Notes under the pieces: model-generated
Databases searched by the model: none
Told to the model about the DNA's origin: nothing
Seen by the model: only the letters and a program-made list of their open reading frames with translations
Made by a program: the position numbers and the translations under genes
Part shown: piece by piece, positions 2,681-33,823 of the stretch
How the letters are laid out: each line of letters opens with the position of its first letter
Numbering within the stretch: the stretch's first letter is position 1
Virus record (IMG/VR): IMGVR_UViG_2877251553_000003
DNA: 33,823 nucleotides
Origin: a virus
Taxonomy: Duplodnaviria > Heunggongvirae > Uroviricota > Caudoviricetes
Direction: 5' to 3' (one strand)

Positions 2681-4174
<1,494 letters not shown>

Positions 4175-4182
4175 CCACTTCA

Positions 4183-4822
4183 CGCCAGAGTTTTATTTGA
4201 GATCGCAAACAGGGAGGTGGCTTATTACAACATAAGGCAGGAGTTTAATTACTCAACTGAAATTACTGATTTCATGAAAGCGGTATATTTCCTGTATCTC
4301 AATCGTCACGGTTACCGTGGTTTATGTCGCTATAACAAGAGCGGGCATTTCAACATTCCCTACGGCAATTATAAAAATCCGTATTTCCCTGAAAAAGAAA
4401 TTCGCGCATTTGCAGAAAAAGCCCAGCGAGCAACGTTTATCTGCGCCAGCTTTGATGAAACGCTGGCGATGTTGAAGGCGGGGGATGTGGTGTATTGCGA
4501 TCCACCGTATGACGGTACGTTTTCCGGCTATCACACTGATGGTTTCACTGAAGATGACCAGTATCACCTAGCATCCGTTCTTGAACATCGGTCATCAGAA
4601 GGACATCCGGTCATTGTTTCTAACAGTGACACATCCCTGATCCGTTCGCTGTATTGCAATTTTACTCACCACTATATCAAGGTAAAACGCAGCATCGGTG
4701 TGGCAGCTGGCGAGGGTAAATCAGCAACAGAAATCATTGCTGTTTCCGGGCCGCGCTGCTGGGTGGGATTTGATTATTCGCGTGGCGTGGATAGTTCTGC
4801 CGTGTACGGAGTACGTGCATGA
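4183..4822 (+). pseudogene. dam: Dam-family N6-adenine DNA methyltransferase, 5'-truncated at the IS911 right end
   Basis: Translation from the IS boundary aligns with E. coli Dam from about residue 60 onward ([23 protein letters not shown] motif IV); the N-terminal part is missing. Confidence 0.75.
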
Positions 4823-6278: not shown

Positions 6279-6349
6279 GTAAGCGTACAGCCTGAACCGT
6301 CTGGTCAGAATCTGACGAATTAGACAAAGTGGTGTCCACCAAATAAGTA

Positions 6350-6750
6350 GTGGGAACCAAAGTGTCAGATATGCAGAAAAATGTGAATCCCGGCAGGCGA
6401 AAAGGCTGCCCTAATTATCCTCCCGAATTTAAACAGCAGCTCGTTGCTGCCTCCTGTGAACCCGGGATATCCATCTCAAAACTTGCTCTTGAAAATGGCA
6501 TTAACGCCAATCTGTTGTTCAAATGGCGACAACAATGGCGCGAGGGAAAGCTGCTATTACCTTCTTCAGAGAGCCCCAGCTACTTCCTGTGACTCTCGAT
6601 GCAGCTGCCGAACAGCCAGAATCGCTCGCAGAGGATCCGGAAACCCTCAGTATCAGCTGTGAGGTAACGTTCCGGCACGGGACGCTCCGCTTCAATGGCA
6701 ATGTCAGCGAAAAGCTCCTGACTCTGCTGATACAGGAACTGAAGCGATGA
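6350..6750 (+). CDS. tnpA: IS66-family TnpA (orf1); frame break in a C-run near 6574-6577
   Basis: Two overlapping track ORFs (6350-6592, 6523-6750) read as one protein if one C is added; start uncertain (GTG 6350 or ATG 6371). Confidence 0.7.
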
Positions 6751-7094
6751 TCCCGTTACCTTCCGGGACCAAAATTTGGCTGGTTGCCGGTATCACCGAT
6801 ATGAGAAATGGCTTCAACGGCCTGGCGGCAAAGGTGCAGACGACGCTGAAAGACGCTCCGATGTCAGGTCACGTTTTTATCTTCCGTGGGCGTAATGGCA
6901 GTCAGGTAAAGCTCCTCTGGTCTACCGGCGATGGACTGTGTCTGCTGACCAAACGGCTGGAGCGCGGCCGCTTCGCCTGGCCGTCAGCCCGGGATGGCAA
7001 AGTGTTCCTCACACCGGCACAGCTGGCGATGCTCCTTGAAGGTATCGACTGGCGGCAGCCTAAAAGACTGCTTACGTCCCTGACTATGTTGTAA
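6747..7094 (+). CDS. tnpB: IS66-family TnpB (orf2)
   Basis: 115-aa ORF MIPLPSGTKIWLVAGITDMRNGFNGLA... overlapping the tnpA stop (ATGA). Confidence 0.8.
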   Translation: MIPLPSGTKIWLVAGITDMRNGFNGLAAKVQTTLKDAPMSGHVFIFRGRNGSQVKLLWSTGDGLCLLTKRLERGRFAWPSARDGKVFLTPAQLAMLLEGIDWRQPKRLLTSLTML

Positions 7095-7142
7095 GCCTCT
7101 TTATCCTGGTCGACGCTGAATGAGCCTGGTAATATACCCGGT

Positions 7143-8680
7143 ATGAGCAGCTCACTTCCTGACGATATCAATGCACTGAAACGTCTCCTTGCCGAACAGG
7201 AGGCGCTGAACCGTGCCCTGCTGGAAAAGCTGAACGAGCGTGAACGCGAAATAGACCATCTGCAGGCACAGCTGGATAAGCTGCGCCGGATGAACTTCGG
7301 CAGCCGCTCCGAAAAAGTCTCCCGTCGTATCGCACAGATGGAAGCTGACCTGAAGGCACTTCAGAAAGAAAGTGATACCCTTACCGGTCGGGTTGACGAC
7401 CCGGCCGTGCAGCGCCCGCTGCGTCAAACCCGCACCCGCAAACCGTTCCCCGAATCACTCCCCCGCGATGAAAAACGGCTGCTGCCGGCAGCGTCATGCT
7501 GCCCGGAATGTGGAGGCTCACTGAGCTATCCGGGTGAGGATGCCGCCGAACAGCTGGAGTTGATGCGCAGCGTCTTCCGGGTTATCCGGACTGTACGTGA
7601 AAAGCATGCCTGTACTCAGTGCGATGCCATCGTGCAGGCCCCGCGCCTTCACGGCCCATCGAGCGGGGTATCGCAGGACCGGGGCTGCTGGCCCGCGTGC
7701 TGATCTCAAAGTATGCAGAGCACACCCCGCTGTACCGCCAGTCTGAAATGTACGGCCGCCAGGGCGTGGAGCTGAGTCGTTCACTGCTGTCGGGCTGGGT
7801 GGATGCATGCTGCCGGCTACTGTCACCGCTGGAAGAAGCGCTTCAGGACTATGTGCTGACTGACGGTAAGCTCCATGCTGATGACACGCCTGTCCCGGTG
7901 CTGTTGCCAGGCAATAAGAAAACGAAGACCGGGCGGTTATGGACCTACGTTCGTGACGACCGTAACGCCGGGTCAACGCTGGCGCCGGCGGTGTGGTTCG
8001 CTTACAGCCCGGACAGAAAAGGCATCCATCCGCAGACCCATCTTGCGGGGTTCAGTGGTGTACTGCAGGCGGATGCATACGCCGGGTTCAACGAGCTGTA
8101 CCGGGATGGCCGGATAACGGAAGCCGCCTGTTGGGCTCACGCCCGCCGTAAAATCCACGATGTGCACGTTCGCACCCCGTCAGCCCTGACGGAGGAAGCG
8201 CTGAAACGGATCGGCGAACTGTACGCCATCGAGGCAGAGATAAGGGGAATGACGGCGGAGCAGCGCCTTGCCGAACGTCAGTTGAAAACGAAACCGCTGC
8301 TGAAATCCCTGGAAAGCTGGCTGCGTGAAAAGATGAAAACCCTGTCGCGACACTCAGAACTGGCGAAAGCGTTCGCATACGCCCTGAACCAGTGGCCGGC
8401 GCTGACGTACTATGCAGATGATGGCTGGGCTGAGGCGGACAATAATATCGCTGAAAATGCGTTGCGGATGGTCAGTCTGGGCCGCAAAAACTACCTGTTC
8501 TTCGGTTCGGATCATGGAGGAGAGCGGGGAGCGCTGCTGTACAGCCTGATCGGGACGTGCAAACTGAACGGAGTGGAGCCAGAAAGCTACCTCCGCTATG
8601 TACTTGACGTCATAGCCGACTGGCCGATAAACCGGGTCGGCGAACTGCTCCCCTGGCGCGTAGCACTGCCGACTGAATAA
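7143..8680 (+). CDS. tnpC: IS66-family transposase TnpC (orf3); frame break near 7638-7647
   Basis: Track ORFs 7143-7703 and 7619-8680 join into one ~510-aa protein (leucine-zipper N-terminus, CxxC...CxxC, DDE region) with a single-base correction. Confidence 0.75.
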
Positions 8681-8725
8681 CACATCCCCGTCAATACGGT
8701 TCTTGCTGCACGCTTACCATTGACG

Positions 8726-10201: not shown

Positions 10202-10336
10202 GAAACGTTGCTGGCGTCTGAACTAGCTTCTGGCGTCAGCAAGGTTGAACAACGAGCCCTTGCGAGGCGTTAGCTCTGTAGTGCATGTCTATGCCGCATG
10301 AGATCGCATGATCGTTTGAGGATCGTTTTTGCTAAG

Positions 10337-10360
10337 GCCCGCCAGAACTGGCGGGCTTTT
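10337..10360 (+). terminator. Rho-independent terminator after the dinI-like gene
   Basis: GC-rich inverted repeat GCCCGCC(AG)-AACT-(CT)GGCGGGC followed by TTTT. Confidence 0.6.
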
Positions 10361-10493
10361 GCGTAGATCATGCAGGTGCATGAAAACCACTACATAAAGC
10401 GGGCAGGCGTGGCGGGGATACGATTGCGCGCTAGGTATAAGTGTGTAAAATAATTCCAAAATAAATCATCACTAATGAAGTGAGAGGGTAATA

Positions 10494-12142
10494 ATGTTAG
10501 TCAAGAAAAATAAAAATTATAGTTTATATTTTTTAATTACAAATAATCAACAGATATCTGATTCTGGTAATTATATAAAAATAGTCCCATCAAGAAGCGA
10601 TTGGAATGATTTTGGATATTTGAGTAGAGTCGAAATATCTATTTTTAATAAAAAAGAGTGTAAGGATATAATTTCACTGAATGGTTATATTGGTTTTTTG
10701 AATTCAGAGGAGGAACGAAATGGAAAAGCAGAACTGATAAGGCGAGTGAAAAAAAAGGAAGAATCTAATTTAAAGGATGAGGGGTTTAATGATTATTTTG
10801 TCATGCTTCAGGATATGAATAATTATCGAAGACTAGTAAGATTTTTTGGGGTGAATGAATCCAAATATATATTAAATTTCATTAATGATGTTGTTTCTAA
10901 GAAAAGTGACGCTAGTGCAGAGAATTTGAGGAAAAAAGCAATCTCTTCTGATATCTTTAATAAATCTTTCATTAGAGAGTCTGAGTCGTATTTTACTTTC
11001 AAAAATGCAGGAACAGTTCTTTCCGGTATTCAATATGAGGAGTTGGGTAATTTATCACAGCACATCAAGATTAGCTATTCGAATAAAGTTAATGAAGAAG
11101 ATGTATCTTATGTTTTTAATTTTGATCACGAGCATGATTTACCAAAAAGAATTTCCATAATTATAGGCGAGAATGGTGTAGGAAAAAGCCAAACGCTTAG
11201 AGAAATCGCATTGGCTGCGATTAAAGGAAAGGATAATTTGGTGGCTGTAGTTGATTCTAACGGTGTGAGCATTGAAGAACGAATTCAAATTAGTAGGCTC
11301 ATTGCTTTTTCTCCAACAAATGAAAGTAAGTGTTCATTTCCAACCGATAAAAGAATAAAATCATTGATATGGTACAAAAGATTGACTTTAAATCGTGAAT
11401 CAAAATCCAAATTAAACTTGAATGATTTAATAGTGCAACTAGCGAGGAGTAACGACGCTATCGGCTATAATCAAAGGTGGAATATATTTGTTGATGCACT
11501 GAGTGTTCTAAATAGTAACAACGATTTAGTAATCAAATGTGGCGGTGAAAATTCACCATTTGTTAAATTAAATGAGCTTAATTCTCGAGGCGAAGAATCT
11601 AGACTATCATTATATTCTGAAATTATTCTCTCTGGCGAGCCTTTGAGGCTTATTGAAAATAAATGTTACCCTTTGAGTAGTGGGAAATATCGTTTATTAA
11701 GTTTTGTGTACAAGTTTGTTTGTATATTGAGAATGGGACTCTTCTATTAATAGATGAGCCAGAAACACATCTCCATCCTTCATTTATTAATAAATTTATG
11801 GCATTGCTTGATAATTTATTAGAAAAGACAGGCTCTTCAGCTATCATAGCAACGCATTCGGTTTATCTTGTTCGGGAGGTTTTTAAGGAGCAAGTGACAA
11901 TACTCAGAAGACGAGATGATGGGGTAATTGTTAGCGAAAAACCGAGATTGAGTACTTTTGGGGCGAATATAGGAAATATCTCATATTTTGTTTTCGGTGA
12001 GAGTGAACCAACTCAAATTTTAAATAAAGTAAAAAACAATATAATTGCAAAGAATATGTCTTGGGATGATGTTGAATCTAAATATAGCGAGGACTTATCA
12101 CTTAATGTATTAACTGCGTTGAGAAATGAAATGGGCAATTGA
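10494..12142 (+). CDS. ABC-type (AAA_15/AAA_21-like) ATPase of a candidate defence module, with a ~200-aa N-terminal extension; one frame break near 11715-11722
   Basis: Walker A IIGENGVGKSQ (about aa 213), LSSG signature, Walker B LLLIDEPE, H-loop ATHS; track ORFs 10494-11750 and 11720-12142 join if one T is restored in gtttgtttg; strong RBS GAGAGGG; very AT-rich. Confidence 0.8.
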
Positions 12143-12143
12143 A

Positions 12144-13007
12144 ATGAATAAATTAAAAAGACCTGTTTTTAAAGATTATTCTGCATTTAAAAAACTATCT
12201 GCAAATAAGAGATTAAAACATCATTCTGTTCTGAATGGACAGGATACATTTATACTTAATGCATATAGATCGTACATAAAGAATAAAGGGTATCTTAATG
12301 TCAATTCTTGTGGCGTATTGAGTAACAATATTGCTGAAGCTTTGAGATATTATTATAACAATCCCGCAAAGTGTTTATCTATAATTGATGATATAAGAGC
12401 AGCTAATTCTAACTCTCTATGTCCAATGTGTGGTTCAATGCATAGCGGGACTTTGGATCATGTTTTACCCAAGGAAAACTATCCAGAATTTTCTTTATTC
12501 ACTAAGAATTTGGTTCCTGCTTGCAAATGTAATACTTTCAAAAGTACTACTATAGCTAATTCTGCAGGCCATCGGATGCTGCATCCATATTTTGATAATA
12601 TATTAAAACAAAGATTAATATGTGCTAATTTTTCTAAATTAGGGCGAACACCTACAATTGATGTAAAAATCATAATTGACCCAATGTCACCAGAATATAA
12701 CAATGTTAAGTATCATCTTGATAATGTTGTTATCAAGAATAATATTAAGGGGTATTTGTCTGAACAATGGGAGTCGTTTTACTTATATCCTGAGCTTGTT
12801 ATTAGAGGACTGAATAAGAGTCTTTCTACTTATAGCGATGTATATGAGTTGTTGACTCGCGAGTTGTTGCTGTTGGATGAAAAACATAAAGGTAAAAATA
12901 ATTGGAATTCGGTTTTTGTAGCTGGGTTAATTCGACCTGATGTGATTAGGTGGATACTCTGTGAATTACATTTAGGTAACAGAAGTCCAGACGGTCGTCT
13001 CATATGA
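12144..13007 (+). CDS. HNH-family endonuclease, partner of the upstream ATPase
   Basis: CPMCGS...LDHVLPKENYP...NLVPACKCN fits the HNH pattern (CxxC, DH, N, CxC); starts right after the ATPase stop (alternative overlapping ATG at 12126). Confidence 0.75.
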   Translation: MNKLKRPVFKDYSAFKKLSANKRLKHHSVLNGQDTFILNAYRSYIKNKGYLNVNSCGVLSNNIAEALRYYYNNPAKCLSIIDDIRAANSNSLCPMCGSMHSGTLDHVLPKENYPEFSLFTKNLVPACKCNTFKSTTIANSAGHRMLHPYFDNILKQRLICANFSKLGRTPTIDVKIIIDPMSPEYNNVKYHLDNVVIKNNIKGYLSEQWESFYLYPELVIRGLNKSLSTYSDVYELLTRELLLLDEKHKGKNNWNSVFVAGLIRPDVIRWILCELHLGNRSPDGRLI

Positions 13008-13017
13008 TTTTTTGCAT

Positions 13018-13043
13018 CTTCAGCGTGTATCTGCACGCTGAAG
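13018..13043 (+). terminator. Perfect 10-bp inverted-repeat hairpin downstream of the HNH gene (possible terminator; weak T-tract)
   Basis: CTTCAGCGTG-tatctg-CACGCTGAAG. Confidence 0.4.
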
Positions 13044-13114
13044 AAATTCATAAAAACTGCTGCCTATTAATAAATTTTTTTAGCTGAGTTAAAGAACCTC
13101 ATTTAGTGATTACG

Positions 13115-14148
13115 TTAAGTAGCTAGTTTATAACTATCAAATTTAACAATGTTCTCACTTACCAATTTATTTATTTCCATCATTCTTTTTTGTAACGGTA
13201 TTAACTCGTTACGTACAAACACCAGGCTCGCCTTCTCCACATCCCCAAACCCCCGACATTATTAGGCATAATCCCCATCATTTGCGGTGGCACACGATGC
13301 GCCGCCATCATGTCATCCCGGCTCACGTTCTTGATGTTCAGAAACTCATCCTTCGCCGCGACTTCTGACAACGGGATGATCTGAAGCCCGTCCTTTTTGC
13401 CGTTAGGCGAGTACATAAACAGATTGCGGAAGTTACCTGGTCCTTTGGCGCTTTTCATCGCATTGCGGAGGTTGTTCACATCCTCCTGGTTTTGCGCGGC
13501 ATCGGTCATGTACATGATGAAGCCTGCATGACTGCCGTTAATGTAATACTATCGGCGGAACAGCGTGGCGGACTCGTTGAGCAGGGCTGACGGAATGGCA
13601 GAAAGGTAACCTGGCAGGCCGTAGATCTCTTGGTTGATGTCCGGTTCCATCAGATGAAAGATGCTTCCTTTCGTGAACTGATACGGCTGCGTGGTCATGC
13701 CGTATTGCACAAACCAGTAGGTATCCAGGTCTAATCCGCGTCGGGTGTATTTTGCCAGAGCAGGCTCAAGAGCGATGACCTATCCGAACCGGTTTGTGCG
13801 TTTCTCCAGGTAAGCGTTACCAAATACCAGATAATCCTGCACAAAACGTGAAAAAGCCTGCTGGCTGAGCAGCGGGTGAGGGATGTAGGTACTGATCAGA
13901 ATGTTGCATTTCACCGCAATTGGTGAACTGTGATGCACGGCGGCGCGGAAGGTGCGCGCCAGTCCGTCAAAACTCACTGGCGGCTCATACCAGCGATCTG
14001 TCTGTACGCATTCCACATAGTCCAGTAGTTCACGGCGGTCCAGAACCGGAACGGGATCGCCGAAGCTGAATGCTTCGGCTGAAGTCTGGTTTTTATGCTG
14101 GGTCTGTTTCGTCGCCGCAGCGCGGTTCTTCTTACTCTTTCCCATCAA
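13115..14148 (-). pseudogene. Q: P2 gpQ-type portal protein with two in-frame TAG codons and one C-terminal frame break
   Basis: MMGKSKKNRAAATKQ... N-terminus; TAG at 13780-13782 and 13549-13551 (as the reverse complement of cta) in the same frame as the flanking segments; a frame change near 13251-13260 extends the ORF to about 13115. Confidence 0.8.
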
Positions 14149-15910
14149 AAAATCTCCACAATATTGCTGGTATTGGCGGACTCGCCCTGCAGCGGTTCGT
14201 TAAACAGTGCGTGCATTGTTGCCCAGGCCAGATCGGCATGGCTGGCTTCTTCGCTGCGGCTGGCTTCATAGGTCGGGCGGTTGCCGCTGGCGGTGGTGGC
14301 GCGACGGATTGCCATGAATGACTGCGCAATGTCGGTGTGCCCGGCGTCAAACTCAAGACGGCGGTGGCTGATAATGTCGTAGGCCTTGAGTACCAGGGCG
14401 TTTTTAACGTTGGGGTTGTAGACAAACTCCCGGACGGCAGGAAAAAACGCTTTCACGTTCTCGTAAACCCGTGACCAACGCCGGTTGAGTCGATGCCGAT
14501 ATAGGTCACGTTGTACTGTTCAGTCAGTTTTTTGATGGCGTAAGCCTGGGCGCGAAAGTCCATTCCGCGCCACTGGTGACGCTCAAGAATGCGGAACTTA
14601 CCGCCTGGCACGGCTGGCGGTGCCACCACCACGCATCCGGCGCTGTCGCCGTTCTGCGTACCTTTTGCCGGGTCATAACCGATCCACACTTCGCGCCAGC
14701 CAAACGGGCGCAGGGCCAGTGCATGAAAGTCGGTCCAGACTTCCCAGCTGTCCACCATGCACGCCTGCAATTCGCTGAGCGGGAACACGGACGCGAGATC
14801 GTCCACGAACTCGCACATCAGCAGGTTCTGGTATTCGTCAGGGCTGTACTCCATGCGCAACTGGTCAAGGTCGAACAGGTTACAGGCGCCGCGCACCGCA
14901 TCTTCCACGGTGACTATCTGGCGGTATTGCCCGTCTGCGCACAGCAGGCCGGGGGCCAGATTGCTGTGGGACAGGTCGATGTCCACCTTGTCAGCTTTGT
15001 TGCGCCCACGGTTGAACAGCGCACCGGACCAGAACGGATAAGCACTGTGGGTCAGACTGGATGGTGTGGAAAAATAGGTCTGCCGCCATTTCTTGTGAAT
15101 AGCCATACCAGAAGCCACTTTGCGTAGCTCCTGAAATTTCGGTATCCAGAAATATTCATCCAGATACAGGTTACCGTGATAACTCTGGGCAGTGCGGGCA
15201 TTGGTGCCGAGGAAATACAGTGTGGCCCCGTTGGGAAGCACCATCGGATCGCCTTTCAGCTCCACCTCCACTTCTTTGGCAAAGTCGATGATGTACTGTT
15301 TGAAGACGTGGGCCTGTGCCTTACTGGCAGAAAGGAAAATCTGGTTACGTCCGGTAAGCAGGGCGTCAATCAGGGCTTCACGGGCAAAATAGAAGGTCGC
15401 GCCGATCTGGCGTGACTTCAGCAGGTTGCGGATGCGGTTGGTTTTTCCGGCTTCCCACCAGTGGCGCTGGTAGTTGAACATGGAGGAATGGAAATTTTTT
15501 TCCAGCTTCTCAATCTGGTCATCGGTGAAAACATTCTTTTCAGGCTGACGGCGTGGGCCTTTGTTGCGGTTGGCGACGTTAGGGTTTAAGTCGGCTTCGT
15601 TGCCGCCATTGTTAAACTTGCCGATCCGCGCGTGGCGCTCAGACTGGCGCGCCAGCAGGTCAATATCTTTGAAATCTTTCCCTTCTTTGTGCTCCTTCAT
15701 GATGAGCTGGCAGTAGCGTGCGGCGGTGGTGAGCTGCATCTGATCCAGAGGCCCATAGTCACCCCACTTGTCGCGTTTTTTCCAGCTGTAAACGGTTGCA
15801 ACTTTCTCGCCCAGCATTTCAGCAATGCGGGCTACGCGGTATCCCTGAAAGTACAGCAGCATGGCCTGCCGACGGGGATCGAGATCTGCGGGTGTCAGTG
15901 TGGTGTTCAT
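14145..15910 (-). CDS. P: P2 gpP-type terminase large subunit; single frame break near 14468-14470
   Basis: Track ORFs 14453-15910 and 14145-14456 join as ...IGIDSTGVGHG|VYENVKAFFPAVREF... if one G is restored. Confidence 0.85.
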
Positions 15911-18710: not shown

Positions 18711-19157
18711 ATGAAGTTTGTTGCGCCAGAACAGGCACCGGAACAGGCGGAAATCATTAGAAATACGCCGTTCTGGCCTGATGTGGACCTGTCGGAGTTT
18801 CGCAGTGTCATGCGCACTGACGGCACGGTGACGCAGCCGCGTTTAAAGTAGGTTGCACTGTCGGCAATTTCGGAGGTTAACGCAGAGCTGTATGAATTTC
18901 GCAGACGCCAGCAGATGCTGGGGTATGCGTCGGAACAGCTGGACGGGAAAAGTGAGCGCATTCAGCACTATTTCAACGCGGTTTACTGCTGGGCTCGCGC
19001 CATGCTCAACGAACGTTTCCAGGACTATGACGCCACGGCATCCGGTGCGAAGCGGGGCGAAGAACTGGCGGAAGCAAGCGGTGATTTGTGGCGTGACGCC
19101 CGCTGGGCCATCAGCCGGGTGCAGGACGCGCCGCACTGCACAGTGGAGCTTATCTGA
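18711..19157 (+). pseudogene. L: gpL head completion protein with an in-frame TAG at 18849-18851
   Basis: MKFVAPEQ... and ...NAELYEFRRRQ...CTVELI lie in the same frame either side of the TAG; RBS GGAGAAAG before the ATG. Confidence 0.75.
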
Positions 19158-21847: not shown

Positions 21848-22123
21848 GTGGCTTCCATTTCCATCAGATGTCCTTCCTGCTCCGCTATTGAAGGCGTGGT
21901 GCGTAACGGCAAAAGAACTGCCGGACATCAGCGCTATCTCTGCTCTCATTGCCGTAAAACATGGCAACTACAGTTCACTTACACCGCCTCTCAGCCCGGT
22001 ACGCACCAGAAAATCATTGATATGGCCATGAATGGCGTCGGATGTCGCGCCAGTGCACGCATTATGGGCGTTGGCCTCAACACGGTTTTACGTCACTTAA
22101 AAAACTCAGGCCGCAGTCGGTAA
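21848..22123 (+). CDS. insA: IS1 InsA
   Basis: 91 aa, 8 substitutions relative to the copy-1 InsA. Confidence 0.9.
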
Positions 22124-22167
22124 CCTCGCGCATACAACCGGGCAGTGATGTGATTGTCTGCGCTGAA

Positions 22168-22545
22168 ATGGACGAACAGTGGGGCTACGTCGGTGCTAAA
22201 TCACGTCAGCGCTGGCTGTTTTACGCGTATGACAGGATACGGAGGACGGTTGTGGCGCACGTCTTCGGTGAACGCACTCTGGCCACACTGGAGCGTCTTC
22301 TGAGCCTGCTGTCGGCCTTTGAGGTCGTGGTATGGATGACGGATGGCTGGCCGCTGTATGAATCACGCCTGAAGGGAAAGCTGCACGTTATCAGCAAGCG
22401 TTACACTCAGCGCATTGAGCGACATAATCTGAATCTGAGACAACATCTGGCAAGGCTGGGACGGAAGTCACTGTCGTTCTCAAAATCGGTGGAGCTGCAT
22501 GACAAGGTCATCGGGCATTATCTGAACATAAAACACTATCAGTAA
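22168..22545 (+). CDS. insB: IS1 InsB
   Basis: [16 protein letters not shown]... in the same position within the element as in copy 1. Confidence 0.85.
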
Positions 22546-22560
22546 GTTGGCAGCATTACC

Positions 22561-23038
22561 ATGCAGCCCTCACAATATAGTTAAAAGCGACATTTCGTGG
22601 GCGTGTTTCATTCGCACCTGCAGGTTTAGTCGTTGCCGCAACAACACCACCCTCTGTAATAGCCGGGTTGGGAATTGGGTAATTATCGAAGTCAATGGCC
22701 GGAGACAGGGGCGTGATTTGTTTTAAAATCGTGGTGCCTGTAAAACTTTCCAGAGTCTGGTCGTTAGTTCGTGAAGTCCAGATTCCCCAATAGTGGTTAT
22801 GACTGACAATCGCACCGTCCTGAAGCGTTAATAATCCCCTTCCGTTATCCACTCCACGTCCGTCATCCCAGCCACGAATAAACTCACCGCGTAAATCAGG
22901 CAATTTATTTGTCGGGTAAGCCTTTGCCAGTTCCGGGTATTCTTCAGCAGAAAAAGCCGCACCATTGCATTTCAGCCAGCCTGTCGGCGGAGTGGCTGAA
23001 GGCCACGGAACAGGCACACCAACAGGTAATGCAGAGCC
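22561..23038 (-). pseudogene. Tail-fibre C-terminal variable domain (alternative, inverted copy) with no attached constant region
   Basis: PWPSATPPTGWLKCNGAAFSAEEYPELAKAYP...ETRPRNVAFNYIVRAA is the conserved tail-fibre C-terminal pattern (P2 H / Mu S type); begins at the crossover site and abuts IS1. Confidence 0.65.
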
Positions 23039-23064
23039 TTCTCCCAAACCAACGTTTAAGAAAA
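23039..23064. other. Gin/Hin/Cin/Pin-type 26-bp recombination crossover site
   Basis: TTCTCCCAAACC-AA-CGTTTAAGAAAA fits the half-site pattern (TTnTCnnAAACC / GGTTTnnGAnAA) next to the invertase gene. Confidence 0.5.
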
Positions 23065-23119
23065 TGCAGAGATAATGGCTAACTGGCATCATCCCCGGTT
23101 TTTATTCAGGGGATTGATC

Positions 23120-23685
23120 ATGCTTATTGGCTATGTACGCGTGTCAACAAATGACCAGAACACCGATTTGCAACGTAATGCACTGAACTGCGCGGGATGT
23201 GAGCGGATTTTTGAGGATAAAATCAGTGGCACTAAGCCCGACAGACCGGGGCTTAAAAAACTGCTCAGGACACTATCGGCAGGAGACACGCTGGTTGTCT
23301 GGAAGCTGGACAGACTGGGACGCAGTATGCGGCATCTTGTTACGCTGATAGAAGAGTTGCGCCAGCGTGGTGTGAATTTCCGAAGCCTGACTGACAGTAT
23401 TGATACCAGTACCCCAATGGGCCGTTTCTTTTTTCACGTCATGGGGCTCTGGCTGAAATGGAACGTGAACTGATAGTTGAACGTACCAGAGCAGGGCTGG
23501 CTGCAGCTCGTGCCAAAGGCAGAGTAGGTGGACTCCGTCCTAAGTTGACCACCGAACAGTGGGCACAGATTGGACGTTTACTCGAGGCCGGAGAATCAAG
23601 ACAGCGTATTGCACTGATTTTTGATGTGGGCGTTTCTACCATTTATAGAAAATTTCCGGCGAATGAGAGCAATGAATCGCCCTGA
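23120..23685 (+). CDS. pin: Pin/Gin/Hin-family serine DNA invertase; frame break in a G-run near 23444-23447
   Basis: MLIGYVRVSTNDQNTDLQRNAL...VVWKLDRLGRS...FFFHVMG|ALAEMERELIVERT... nearly identical in pattern to E. coli Pin as recalled. Confidence 0.85.
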
Positions 23686-31204: not shown

Positions 31205-32890
31205 TTATCCTAATCCTGGCCATACCATGACGATGATTGTCCCTGCCAGCGTCAGCAGGACGTTGGCGATTGCGTAGGTGCCCGCATAGCCCAGCGCAGG
31301 GATGTTACTGCGAGCTGTATCACTGATGATCTCCATTGCCGGCGCGCAGGTGCGTGCGCCCATCATTGCGCCGAACAACAGTGCGCGGTTCATTCGCAAT
31401 ACATAAGCACCGAACAAGAAACAGATAACCACGGGCACAAGACTGACAATTAATCCGGCAATCAACATCTGACCGCCAATCGCGGCCAGGCCGTTATTAA
31501 TACCGCTACCGGCGCTCAGACCAACGCCTGCCATAAACACCATCAAGCCGAACTCTTTCACCATGCTTAATGCACCTTGCGGAATGTAACCGAAGGTCGG
31601 GTGGTTAGCACGCATAAAGCCCAGCATAATTCCGGCGAATAACAACCCGGCAGCGTTCCCCATGCCGAAACTGAATGTGCTGAACTGGAAGGTGATCATC
31701 CCGATCATCAGCCCAATAACAAAGAAGGCGCAAAATGCCAGCAGGTCAGTGACCTGGCTGTGAATCGAGATAAAGCCGATGCGATCGGCAATGGTTTTTA
31801 CGCGACGGGCATCACCGCTGACTTGTAAAACGTCACCTTTGTTAAGCACGACGTTGTCATCTATCGGCATCTCAATCTGGCTACGAATGACGCGGTTAAG
31901 GAAGCAACCGTGATCGGTCAACTTCAGTTGTGCGAGACGTTTACCTACAGCGTTATGGTTTTTAACGACCACTTCTTCAGTGACGATACGCATGTCGAGA
32001 AGGTCACGATCGAAAACTTCTTTACCGTTACGGAAGCTGGGATCGAGTCGGGCATGGGCGTCGGGATAGCCTACCAACGCTATTTCATCGCCCATTTGTA
32101 GCACGGCATCACCGTCTGGATTTGCCAGAATCCCGTTACGTCGAATACGTTCAATGTAGCAGCCGGTTTGTCGATAAATACCCAGTTCACGCAGATTTTT
32201 GCCGTCGGTCCAGGCCACCAGCTCCGGGCCGACGCGATAGGCGCGGATCACCGGTAAATAAACCTTACGGTTGGCATCAGTGTCCAGGCCACGTTCGCGG
32301 GCGATTTGCTGGGCGCTGGTCTGTAAGTCCTGATGCTGCAATTTCGGCAAGTAACGCGCACCAACAATCAAACTCACCAGACCGATTAAATAGGTTAAGG
32401 CATACCCGAGGCTCAGATTATCCAGTGCCAGTGAGAGCTGCCTGCTTTCCATGCCGGAATGACGCAGTGTATCGCCAGCACCGACCAGAACCGGTGTCGA
32501 CGTCATAGAGCCTGCTAACATACCGGCCGTCAGGCCAATATCCCAGCCAAACAGCTTACCTAACCCTAAGGCGATCACCAGCGCACTGCCAACCATCACC
32601 AGTGCTAACATTAGGTAATTTTTCCCATCGCGAAAAAAAATGGAAAAAAAGTTCGGTCCGGCTTCGACCCCGACGCAGAAAATAAACAGCATAAAGCCAA
32701 GATTAAGCGCATCGGTGTTAATGCTGAAATGTTGTTGGCCTAATAACAGCGATACGACTAAAACGCCAATGGAATTACCCAGTTGGATCGAACCAAGTCG
32801 TAACTTTCCGAGACATAGCCCAAGCGCGAGGACCACAAATAATAACAGAATGTAATTCCCATTTAACAATTCGGCGACGTTTATATTCAC
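31205..32890 (-). CDS. ybjL: YbjL putative transporter (AAE family)
   Basis: 561-aa ORF recognised as E. coli YbjL; multi-TM halves around a central soluble region. Confidence 0.9.
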
Positions 32891-33159
32891 GGAGGCTAAC
32901 TTCTTGTTTACTAGTAAGCTGTTGAAAGAAATGGTAATTTACGATAATGTTTTTTACCAGAATTCAGGGCGCAGATTCATTCAGCGCACCTAAACGATAG
33001 TAAAGTAACAATGTATTTTACTAGTGTAATCACATTAGGTATCAACGGCTATATGAATTGCGTTGGCCTATATTAGCATGGAATGCGAAGCGGCTTTATC
33101 TTACTGAACGCCACACTGGCGAAAAATGTGTTCGATAGACGCAGTGTCAGGAGGAACGA

Positions 33160-33536
33160 GTGAAACATAAACAACGTTGGGCAGGGGCAATCTGCTGTTT
33201 TGTCCTCTTCATTGTGGTGTGCCTTTTTCTGGCGACGTACATGAAAGGCGCTTTTCGGGCTGCCGGGCATCCTGAAATCGGCTTGCTGTTTTTCATTCTT
33301 CCTGGAGCAGTTGCCAGTTTCTTTTCACAGCGTAGAGAAGTCCTGAAACCTCTATTTGGCGCAATGCTGGCGGCACCCTGTTCAATGCTCATTATGCGGC
33401 TGTTTTTTTCACCGACGCGCTCATTCTGGCAAGAGCTGGCATGGTTACTAAGCGCGGTGTTCTGGTGTGCGCTGGGGCACTGTGTTTCTTATTTATCAGT
33501 AGTTTGTTTAAACCACAGCACAGAAAAAATCAGTAA
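33160..33536 (+). CDS. ybjM: YbjM inner membrane protein (the ORF in this assembly runs on to 33693 because of an A6 run at 33524-33529)
   Basis: MKHKQRWAGAICCFVLFIVV...; with A7 instead of A6 the protein ends ...TEKNQ at about 125 aa just before the hairpin; the uncorrected ORF overlaps grxA. Confidence 0.7.
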
Positions 33537-33557
33537 AGCCCTCAACGCGAGGGCTTG
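33535..33557. terminator. Hairpin between convergent ybjM and grxA (probable bidirectional terminator)
   Basis: AAAGCCCTC-aacgc-GAGGGCTTG. Confidence 0.5.
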
Positions 33558-33565
33558 TCAGACGA

Positions 33566-33823
33566 TCAGGCGTCCAGATTTTCTTTCACCCATGCAGCAA
33601 AATCGGTATAGCCGCCGATATGTTGCTGATCGACAAAAATCTGCGGCACGGTTTCTACGGGTTTACCTGCCTTTTGTGGTAGATCTTCTTTAGTGATCCC
33701 TTCCGCACGAATATCTACATACTGATACTGAAAATCATCGCGTTCATTGCTCAATTTCTCAGCCAGATCTTTTGCACGCACACAGTAAGGGCAACCCGAA
33801 CGACCAAAAATAACGGTTTGCAT
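33566..33823 (-). CDS. grxA: Glutaredoxin 1
   Basis: 85 aa, MQTVIFGRSGCPYCVRAKDLA... with the CPYC active site; start codon at the window edge. Confidence 0.95.
   Translation of the reverse strand: MQTVIFGRSGCPYCVRAKDLAEKLSNERDDFQYQYVDIRAEGITKEDLPQKAGKPVETVPQIFVDQQHIGGYTDFAAWVKENLDA

Follow-up and report, generated by a model that had tools for sequence, protein, structure and literature searches.

We report that a two-gene ATPase-HNH cassette in a Shigella-type P2-like prophage is a distant and architecturally distinct relative of Septu that is already catalogued as PDC-M01, and that it is probably horizontally acquired anti-phage cargo residing in the gpA-gpQ hotspot. The window, i.e. the whole stretch of DNA that was analysed, comprises 33,823 nt. 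PDC-M01 (components A and B) is an unpublished candidate system in PADLOC-DB v2.0.0, and the pair is also present, unnamed, in the P2 hotspot table (supplementary file 6) of Rousset et al. 2022 (PMC9122126); the proposal in the first-pass annotation of this DNA that the system might be undescribed was therefore not upheld. The searchable literature yielded no experiment on a PDC-M01 member.

The ATPase gene precedes the HNH gene, both are on the (+) strand, and the HNH ATG follows the ATPase TGA after a gap of 1 nt (Table 1). The two linked genes and their ATPase and HNH motifs are present where the first-pass annotation had placed them, while the HNH protein is 287 and not 288 aa in length. 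The GC content is 0.28-0.34 over positions 10501-13000 compared to 0.43-0.62 in the adjoining 500-nt bins and approximately 0.55 in most of the prophage. An annotated E. coli locus of 99.8% identity shows that the cassette is bordered by a dinI-like gene on one side and by the portal gene of the P2-like prophage on the other, in keeping with the AT-rich block that had been described between these genes; DinI-like and portal genes are also the neighbours at two other loci (L001/L002).

Table 1. Positions of the cassette genes and of the elements at the cassette edges in the window
Feature	Position	Strand	Remarks
GC-rich hairpin followed by UUUU	10334..10359	+	direct folding, dG -24.6 kcal/mol, z -4.25
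cos-like 19-mer GGCGTGGCGGGGATACGAT	10406..10424	+	3 mismatches to the presumed P2/186 cos consensus
ATPase gene, 5' part, original frame	10494..11684	+	N-terminal domain; Walker A GENGVGKS (11166-11189, K231); signature LSSG (11673-11684)
Frameshift site, G-run G3	11682..11684	+	G4 in intact orthologues
ATPase gene, 3' part, -1 frame	11684..12142	+	Walker B LLLIDEPE (11741-11764, D421/E422); H-loop H455 (11855-11857); C-terminal region; TGA 12140-12142
HNH nuclease gene, PDC-M01B-type, intact	12144..13007	+	287 aa; HNH/Zn core 12420-12533
Perfect 12-bp hairpin, flanked by the HNH stop and the 3' end of the convergent portal gene	13017..13044		direct folding, dG about -19.6 kcal/mol on both strands, z -4.3

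Transcription of the dinI-like gene likely terminates at the upstream hairpin, which marks the cargo's left edge and which direct folding places where a terminator had been noted ahead of the pair. The hairpin downstream of the HNH gene likely acts as a bidirectional terminator and marks the right edge. A simple promoter/terminator scan gave counts no better than those for shuffled sequences, missed both hairpins and identified no promoter for the cassette. Between the left hairpin and the ATPase gene there is a 19-mer identified as cos-like by comparison with what we take to be the P2/186 cos consensus, which was also matched in 4 of 100 shuffles. Given this cos-like sequence, the cargo would sit between cos and the portal gene. 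The location corresponds to the cos-proximal gpA-gpQ region of P2, a defence hotspot between the replication gene A and the portal gene Q (PMC9122126), as had been surmised on first inspection.

The assignment to PDC-M01 rests on profile matches for both proteins. With the lost G restored, the ATPase comprises 549 aa, as had been predicted for the frame-corrected protein, and its best PADLOC match is PDC-M01A (PDLC04242; 185 bits, E 3e-55), where residues 27-539 align to positions 31-551 of the 566 in the model. The next PADLOC family is PtuA (PDLC00282) with 108 bits and full-length coverage, and the ranking was unchanged when the two ATPase fragments were scanned separately. For the HNH protein the best match is PDC-M01B (PDLC04270; 115 bits, E 1e-33; residues 8-270 aligned to 3-263 of the 280 model positions), and its best 25 PADLOC matches are all to PDC-M01B, with no PtuB model among them. 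The PADLOC search suggested by the first-pass annotation hence places both proteins in a candidate defence family, and the adjacent, co-directional order A-then-B of PDC-M01 is also that of the window, with no structural difference; the pair is a member, and this copy has a frameshifted A gene.

Pfam, the other suggested search, identified AAA_21 (3e-16) and AAA_15 (1e-8) in the ATPase, while the HNH protein matched no family, the Pfam HNH families included. In the latter the motif residues are CPMC (C93, C96), DH (D105, H106), N122 and CKCN (C127, C129, N130), which are invariant in 36 homologues, and the family also carries the motifs LHPYFD and GKNNWNS. Searches of the PDB with the HNH protein and its profile gave no significant match, the S100 proteins at E 0.03 being noise, and the family profile did not retrieve a PtuB chain even at E up to 10. 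The corresponding searches with the ATPase sequence and family profile returned generic ABC-ATPase matches only and did not discriminate. Approximately the first 190 residues of the ATPase constitute an N-terminal domain that is exclusive to the PDC-M01 family.

Septu, as reportedly described by Doron et al. in 2018, pairs the ABC ATPase PtuA with the HNH nuclease PtuB. The likeness in ATPase+HNH pairing that the first-pass annotation pointed out is evident: both systems are two-gene operons with the ATPase gene 5' of the HNH gene, both ATPases are of the AAA_15/AAA_21 ABC type, and the HNH motifs are of one style, CxxC...[DE]H...NL[LV]P[SA]C.CN. In the PDB the predicted structures appeared closest to PtuA (ATPase) and PtuB (HNH protein), the core of the latter being predicted with low confidence (pLDDT 44-59). 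We take 8ee4, 8ee7 and 8eea to represent Septu, and 9kjx, 9n6b and 9e8z the PtuA-PtuB of the type I-A retrons Ec78/Eco7 and Ec83. The superposition with retron type I-A PtuA covers the ABC core only, about 220-250 residues.

While a Septu-like reading in this broad sense stands, with PtuA and PtuB as the apparent closest solved structures, a canonical Septu system is not what the cassette encodes, since the curated cut-offs were missed widely. Specifically, the ATPase scored 41 bits against the PtuA model NF041760 (NCBIfam; cut-off 500) over residues 418-537 only, and the HNH protein 13 bits (E 0.073) against the PtuB model TIGR02646 (cut-off 52). Alignment (hhalign) to the proteins of a canonical Septu from the P2 hotspot was confined to the catalytic cores, with 67 columns for PtuA and 48 columns at a probability of 25% for PtuB, and the canonical PtuA and PtuB had no PDC-M01 model among their best 25 PADLOC matches. 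The architectures also differ. In PDC-M01 the Walker A lysine is K231, located after the family-specific N-terminal domain, compared to K43 in Septu EcB88 (PMC13096335), and Walker A and Walker B are separated by 190 residues instead of 273. The catalytic histidine of the 287-aa HNH protein is at position 106, whereas PtuB is 210-250 aa long with its histidine at 57-75, and unlike PtuB the PDC-M01 protein has distinct N- and C-terminal helical domains. It is possible, albeit somewhat doubtful, that PDC-M01 is a functional system distinct from Septu, in which the N-terminal domain and the domains flanking the HNH core provide for a trigger, and perhaps a nucleic-acid target, unlike those of canonical Septu and retron-Septu. 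Septu itself is also found in the P2 hotspot (group 105), and in Bacillus the calls of the two systems overlap (PMC11811056).

Type I-A retrons (Ec78/Ec83) carry a reverse transcriptase and an msr/msd ncRNA beside PtuAB, whereas the gene neighbourhoods of 69 loci revealed no retron reverse transcriptase or other third gene conserved beside the PDC-M01 pair. The P2 Old, Gabija GajA and PARIS AriA proteins belong to the same ABC-ATPase clade (with weaker matches) and occupy a similar genomic niche, and P2 old shares the hotspot with the cassette. However, they lack the PDC-M01 N-terminal domain and couple the ATPase to a TOPRIM or DUF4435 nuclease, in contrast to the separate HNH protein in PDC-M01.

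The two genes form a conserved module that is associated with defence islands. At 66 of 69 loci from diverse bacteria the HNH gene directly follows the ATPase gene, and in most cases stop and start overlap by 4 nt, which suggests translational coupling. Both genes are under purifying selection (dN/dS 0.09 and 0.11). Recurrent neighbours include type I and type III restriction-modification (RM) systems, GajA (Gabija), LmuA/LmuB (Lamassu) and integrases; no third gene (retron reverse transcriptase, antitoxin or methylase) is conserved, the best neighbour cluster being present at 7 of the 69 loci, and DUF2026 is found downstream of the pair only in 7 rhizobial loci. The family is rare: it encompasses about 150 clusters at 50% identity, and among 5,426 complete genomes of E. 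coli only 3 carry the pair. A megablast search of the INPHARED phage collection gave no match, i.e. no sequenced free phage in that collection carries the cassette at ≥85% identity.

The presence of RM genes raises the question of whether the two proteins are RM accessories, an ATPase and a nuclease that work only together with an RM system. The best NCBIfam match of the ATPase is indeed TIGR04435, "restriction system-associated AAA family ATPase" (E 1e-20), and type I hsdM/hsdR or type III mod genes are situated within a few kb of the pair in several loci. The TIGR04435 match is, however, partial (74 bits, with a cut-off of 300), RM genes are found in at most about 6 of the 69 loci, and in the P2-like prophages no RM gene is located beside the pair; in view of these data we consider an RM accessory role very unlikely.

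The distribution also bears on a role in packaging, where the HNH protein would assist cos cleavage in the manner of the HK97 gp74-like terminase-associated HNH proteins. The gene has the cos-like sequence as well as the portal and terminase genes next to it, but it is AT-rich foreign cargo that is missing from nearly all of the E. coli genomes referred to above, even though E. coli genomes gave 18,150 occurrences of the hotspot locus (PMC9122126). Moreover, 68 of the 69 homologous loci are outside P2-like prophages, and the partner of the HNH protein is in every case an ABC ATPase and not a terminase. A packaging function has next to no probability and was discarded on the basis of this distribution.

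A selfish function would be compatible with some of the same observations. The pair might be an addiction or toxin-antitoxin-like module, in which the ATPase restrains a nuclease toxin, or a homing element, in neither case with a role against phages. PtuAB of the retron type is toxic once released (PMC12819146), and the PDC-M01 pair is mobile with a GC content below that of its flanks (29 of 65 loci). Yet bona fide defence systems are enriched around the pair, it occupies a validated defence hotspot and there is no sign of homing such as insertion into conserved genes; we regard a purely selfish module as very unlikely, noting that addiction and defence are not mutually exclusive.

For the preferred reading, anti-phage cargo related to Septu, Septu and retron-Septu serve as the analogy for a working model. 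In this model the ATPase would oligomerise and keep the HNH protein in a restrained complex, and the N-terminal domain of roughly 190 aa might respond to a signal from the phage or to an altered nucleotide state. The nuclease would then be released onto nucleic acid, either nicking DNA or cleaving host tRNA, and both the infected cell and phage replication would be arrested. The precedents, as cited in PMC12819146, are that a PtuA hexamer binds PtuB with the nuclease modulated by ATP, and that stand-alone PtuAB nicks DNA, an activity reduced by ATP. In Septu the Walker A/B and HNH residues are required and tRNA-Tyr is cleaved on infection (PMC13096335). The trigger, target and stoichiometry proposed for PDC-M01 are pure analogy. 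If validated, PDC-M01 would be a new named ATPase-HNH system of P2-like phages and of defence islands across Proteobacteria; it would represent a separate branch among the ATPase-HNH (Septu-type) defence systems and fill in one of many unnamed cargo arrangements of the P2 hotspot. A self-contained, sensor-like N-terminal domain could, if the model is true, illustrate how ABC-ATPase scaffolds are re-wired to new phage cues, much as retron I-A has re-wired PtuAB. The practical value is limited, with a family that is rare and already a PADLOC candidate and a window copy that is probably dead.

The latter refers to the ATPase gene, which as sequenced is split into two ORFs, 10494..11750 (418 aa) and 11720..12142. 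The G-run carries a 1-nt deletion (G3 here, G4 in E. coli relatives) that shifts the frame between the signature and Walker B, and the shifted frame ends after 21 out-of-frame codons at TAA 11748-11750. Programmed frameshifting at this run was considered and rejected, since GGG-AAA constitutes in-frame triplets after a T and not an X XXY YYZ heptamer, and since all orthologues have a single intact ORF. The 418-aa version is on record solely on CP026825.1, while numerous assemblies from Shigella, E. coli and Salmonella have the intact ATPase and the identical HNH protein. An example of an intact pair is WP_112048222 and WP_005007304 of E. coli UPEC-245U (NZ_CP049845.1, 4230517-4233138).

Because the ATPase gene is frameshifted and the Shigella-type P2-like prophage is decayed, the window copy is probably non-functional, an inactive remnant with an ATPase pseudogene. 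The frameshift could instead be a homopolymer consensus error of the assembly, given that the 1-nt deletions in the ATPase, portal and terminase genes (G4->G3, C6->C5 and C4->C3, respectively) are all in homopolymer runs, and the cassette would then be intact and functional in the source strain. That the truncated ATPase is confined to a single contig, and that the repaired protein differs from E. coli WP_112048222 by one amino acid, fit this reading, which we consider possible but the less probable one. Against it, the prophage has lesions beyond homopolymer artefacts, which points to genuine decay under way: two substitutions in the portal gene generate TAG (amber) codons (K199* and E122*), and there are four IS insertions, among them ISEc22 in gene A as well as IS1 and IS3-family insertions, one of which truncates the Dam methylase.

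We report that the ABC-type ATPase and HNH nuclease genes at 10494-13007 represent a catalogued, Septu-like candidate defence system that is not a member of canonical Septu. Specifically, the top PADLOC model for the intact ATPase was PDC-M01A (185 bits, full length), followed by the PtuA (Septu ATPase) model PDLC00282 (108 bits, likewise full length), and the HNH protein matched PDC-M01B with 115 bits, the best 25 matches listed all being PDC-M01B. As a control, a canonical Septu from the P2 hotspot (Rousset group 105) scored 504 bits with PtuA and 317 bits with PtuB in PADLOC, and no PDC-M01 model was among its best 25 matches. In hhalign the alignment to this Septu was limited to the core of the HNH protein (48 columns, 31% identity, E 8e-4) and, in the ATPase, to the segment from Walker B to the H-loop (67 columns, E 9e-6). 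The ATPase reached 41 bits with NCBIfam PtuA (cut-off 500), its top NCBIfam model being TIGR04435, 'restriction system-associated AAA ATPase' (74 bits, cut-off 300), and the HNH protein reached 13 bits with TIGR02646 (retron PtuB; cut-off 52). Pfam AAA_21 and AAA_15, which the first-pass annotation had named as families to check, were recovered for the ATPase; for the HNH protein no Pfam family was found. The first-pass proposal of a Septu-like or novel variant stands as to Septu-likeness, and canonical membership fails with the missed NCBIfam PtuA and TIGR02646 models. The first-pass suggestion that the system is undescribed has to be dropped, because the pair corresponds to PADLOC PDC-M01 and is included, without a system name, in the table of Rousset et al. 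PDC-M01 is an unpublished PADLOC candidate for which our literature search found no experimental paper, and in the Bacillus cereus group PDC-M01 and Septu calls overlap (PMC11811056).

Two independent fold searches linked each protein to its corresponding Septu component, with weak margins. For the ATPase the matches were Ec83 PtuA (14.4), Eco7 PtuA (13.8), Septu PtuA (13.7), retron I-A PtuA (13.1) and, as the first non-PtuA match, UvrA2 (12.9), and those listed span the ABC core alone (about 220-250 residues). The Walker A lysine of the window ATPase, K231, lies behind a domain of ~190 aa, whereas Septu EcB88 has K43 (and D316), and the HNH partner exceeds PtuB in length. This N-terminal domain consists of a beta-sheet followed by helices, and its invariant residues include a WNDFG motif (N38, D39, F40); LHPYFD and GKNNWNS are invariant motifs peculiar to the HNH partner. 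In an exhaustive HMMER search residues 1-200 matched 152 of 1.84 billion representatives, and since the carriers are nearly all proteins of 530-580 aa with the domain N-terminal, or fragments of such, the domain is exclusive to the ATPase family. Four family proteins (P0325, P0366, P0370 and P0374; 705-812 aa) have 160-290 extra residues N-terminal of it.

Homologous loci (69 in total) were identified in alpha-, beta- and gammaproteobacteria, Verrucomicrobia, Pirellulaceae and Bacteriovoracaceae. The ATPase-HNH pairing is obligate, with the ATPase homologue directly 5' of the HNH gene in 66 loci and stop and start codons mostly overlapping by 4 nt. The pair is under purifying selection (relative to the Scandinavium orthologue, the ATPase has a dN/dS of 0.09 and the HNH gene one of 0.11) and is found in a defence-island or hotspot context. 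The Scandinavium locus is the only one of the 69 in a P2-like prophage; in other settings the pair repeatedly adjoins genes for type I HsdM and HsdR, type III Mod, Gabija GajA, Lamassu LmuA/LmuB and tyrosine integrases. Compared with the flanking DNA, the pair has a lower GC content at 29 of 65 loci and a higher one at a single locus. No conserved third gene was found across the 69 loci; the best cluster (7/69) is a DUF2026 gene in rhizobia that directly follows the HNH gene in the same orientation (6687-7292 in locus L049 and six more), and its product may be a lineage-specific third component.

As noted in the first pass, the genes lie in an AT-rich block between the dinI and portal genes (28-34% GC compared with about 55% across most of the prophage). 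The flanks in E. coli UPEC-245U (NZ_CP049845.1) agree and belong to a P2-like prophage: upstream come replication gene A, then a small ORF and a DinI-like gene, and downstream the portal and terminase genes, both encoded on the opposite strand. Given the cos-like sequence, the cargo would have cos on one side and the portal gene on the other, whereas in the P2 map old/tin lie between gene A and cos. The first-pass equation of the old/tin position with an anti-phage hotspot was borne out: precisely this cos-proximal gpA-gpQ interval, the place of old and tin in P2, is defined as the P2 defence hotspot by Rousset et al. (PMC9122126). The cargo is rare: of 5,426 complete E. coli genomes, 3 have it, and it was not found in the phage collection at megablast sensitivity.

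Features of the ATPase-HNH cassette and the surrounding prophage
Feature	Position	Strand	Remarks
IS1 transposase ORFs (two), IS3-family (rve) transposase, Dam remnant	about 2681-3055, 3335-4171, 4217-4819, 22042-22542		D12-class Dam methylase apparently truncated by the IS3-family element; C-terminal part alone left (4217-4819)
ISEc22 (IS66 family; tnpA, tnpB, transposase)	6280-8717		inserted in P2 gene A-like replication endonuclease gene
Hairpin, left of cargo block	10334-10359		strong fold, then UUUU
cos-like 19-mer GGCGTGGCGGGGATACGAT	10406-10424		between dinI-like and ATPase genes; resembles P2/186 cos consensus (3 mismatches)
ATPase gene, first frame	10494..11750	+	ORF, 418 aa
ATPase gene, second frame	11720..12142	+	ORF; rest of split ATPase
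HNH gene	12144..13007	+	ORF; 287 aa in E. coli annotation, start 1 nt past ATPase stop
Hairpin, right of cargo block	13017-13044		strong fold
Portal gene	13115-14145	-	substitutions to TAG, E122* at 13782 and K199* at 13551; C6-to-C5 frameshift at 13250
Large terminase gene	14145-15910	-	C4-to-C3 frameshift at 14468

In the ORF reading the ATPase and HNH genes form two co-directional units, and all motifs named in the first pass are present: Walker A GENGVGKS (K231), LSSG(E), Walker B LLLIDEPE (D421/E422) and H-loop H455 in the ATPase, and CPMC, DH (H106), N122 and CKCN in the HNH protein. Both motif sets are catalytically complete. The HNH protein, first given as 288 aa, has 287 aa and is identical to WP_005007304, with sources named Shigella and Enterobacteriaceae. 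[quoted passage not shown] Stand-alone PtuAB, as cited in PMC12819146, assembles into a hexamer, and ATP lowers its DNA nicking; the PtuAB of retron I-A forms a toxic 4:2 complex that msDNA keeps in check (PMC12819146). On these precedents we propose that an ATPase oligomer would restrain its HNH partner, that the N-terminal domain specific to the family might act as sensor, and that upon activation nucleic acid would be cleaved and the infected cell arrested.

The window copy of the pair is probably inactivated. Alignment with the 99.8% identical UPEC-245U locus shows that one G is lost in the run at 11682-11684 (G3 compared with G4), directly 3' of the LSSG motif; restoring it gives the 549 aa predicted in the first pass, one residue apart from WP_112048222. 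The 418-aa product is on record solely on the window's own contig, CP026825.1 (GCA_002949915.1). Since all three 1-nt deletions (ATPase, portal and terminase) are in homopolymers, consensus errors are possible, and we favour, with some reserve, an ATPase that is truly broken. The prophage is heavily decayed by IS insertions, TAG codons in the portal gene, frameshifts and a late-region deletion (18 nt, in-frame, at 18931 relative to the UPEC-245U prophage); the nonsense substitutions, both amber, and the IS insertions show that this decay is real. The ISEc22 transposase ORF itself looks split (7143-7703 and 7619-8680), and the second IS1 copy is in the tail-fibre region. A serine recombinase ORF (resolvase/invertase N-terminal domain; 22559-23092, minus strand) adjoins a tail-collar-domain ORF in opposite orientation (23075-23470, plus strand), which points to a module for tail-fibre inversion (host-range switching) that now has an IS1 as its neighbour. 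Finally, host genes at 31208-33690, a YbjL-like Asp-Al_Ex/TrkA_C permease and YbjM, lie beyond and mark the right prophage boundary near 30.7 kb.
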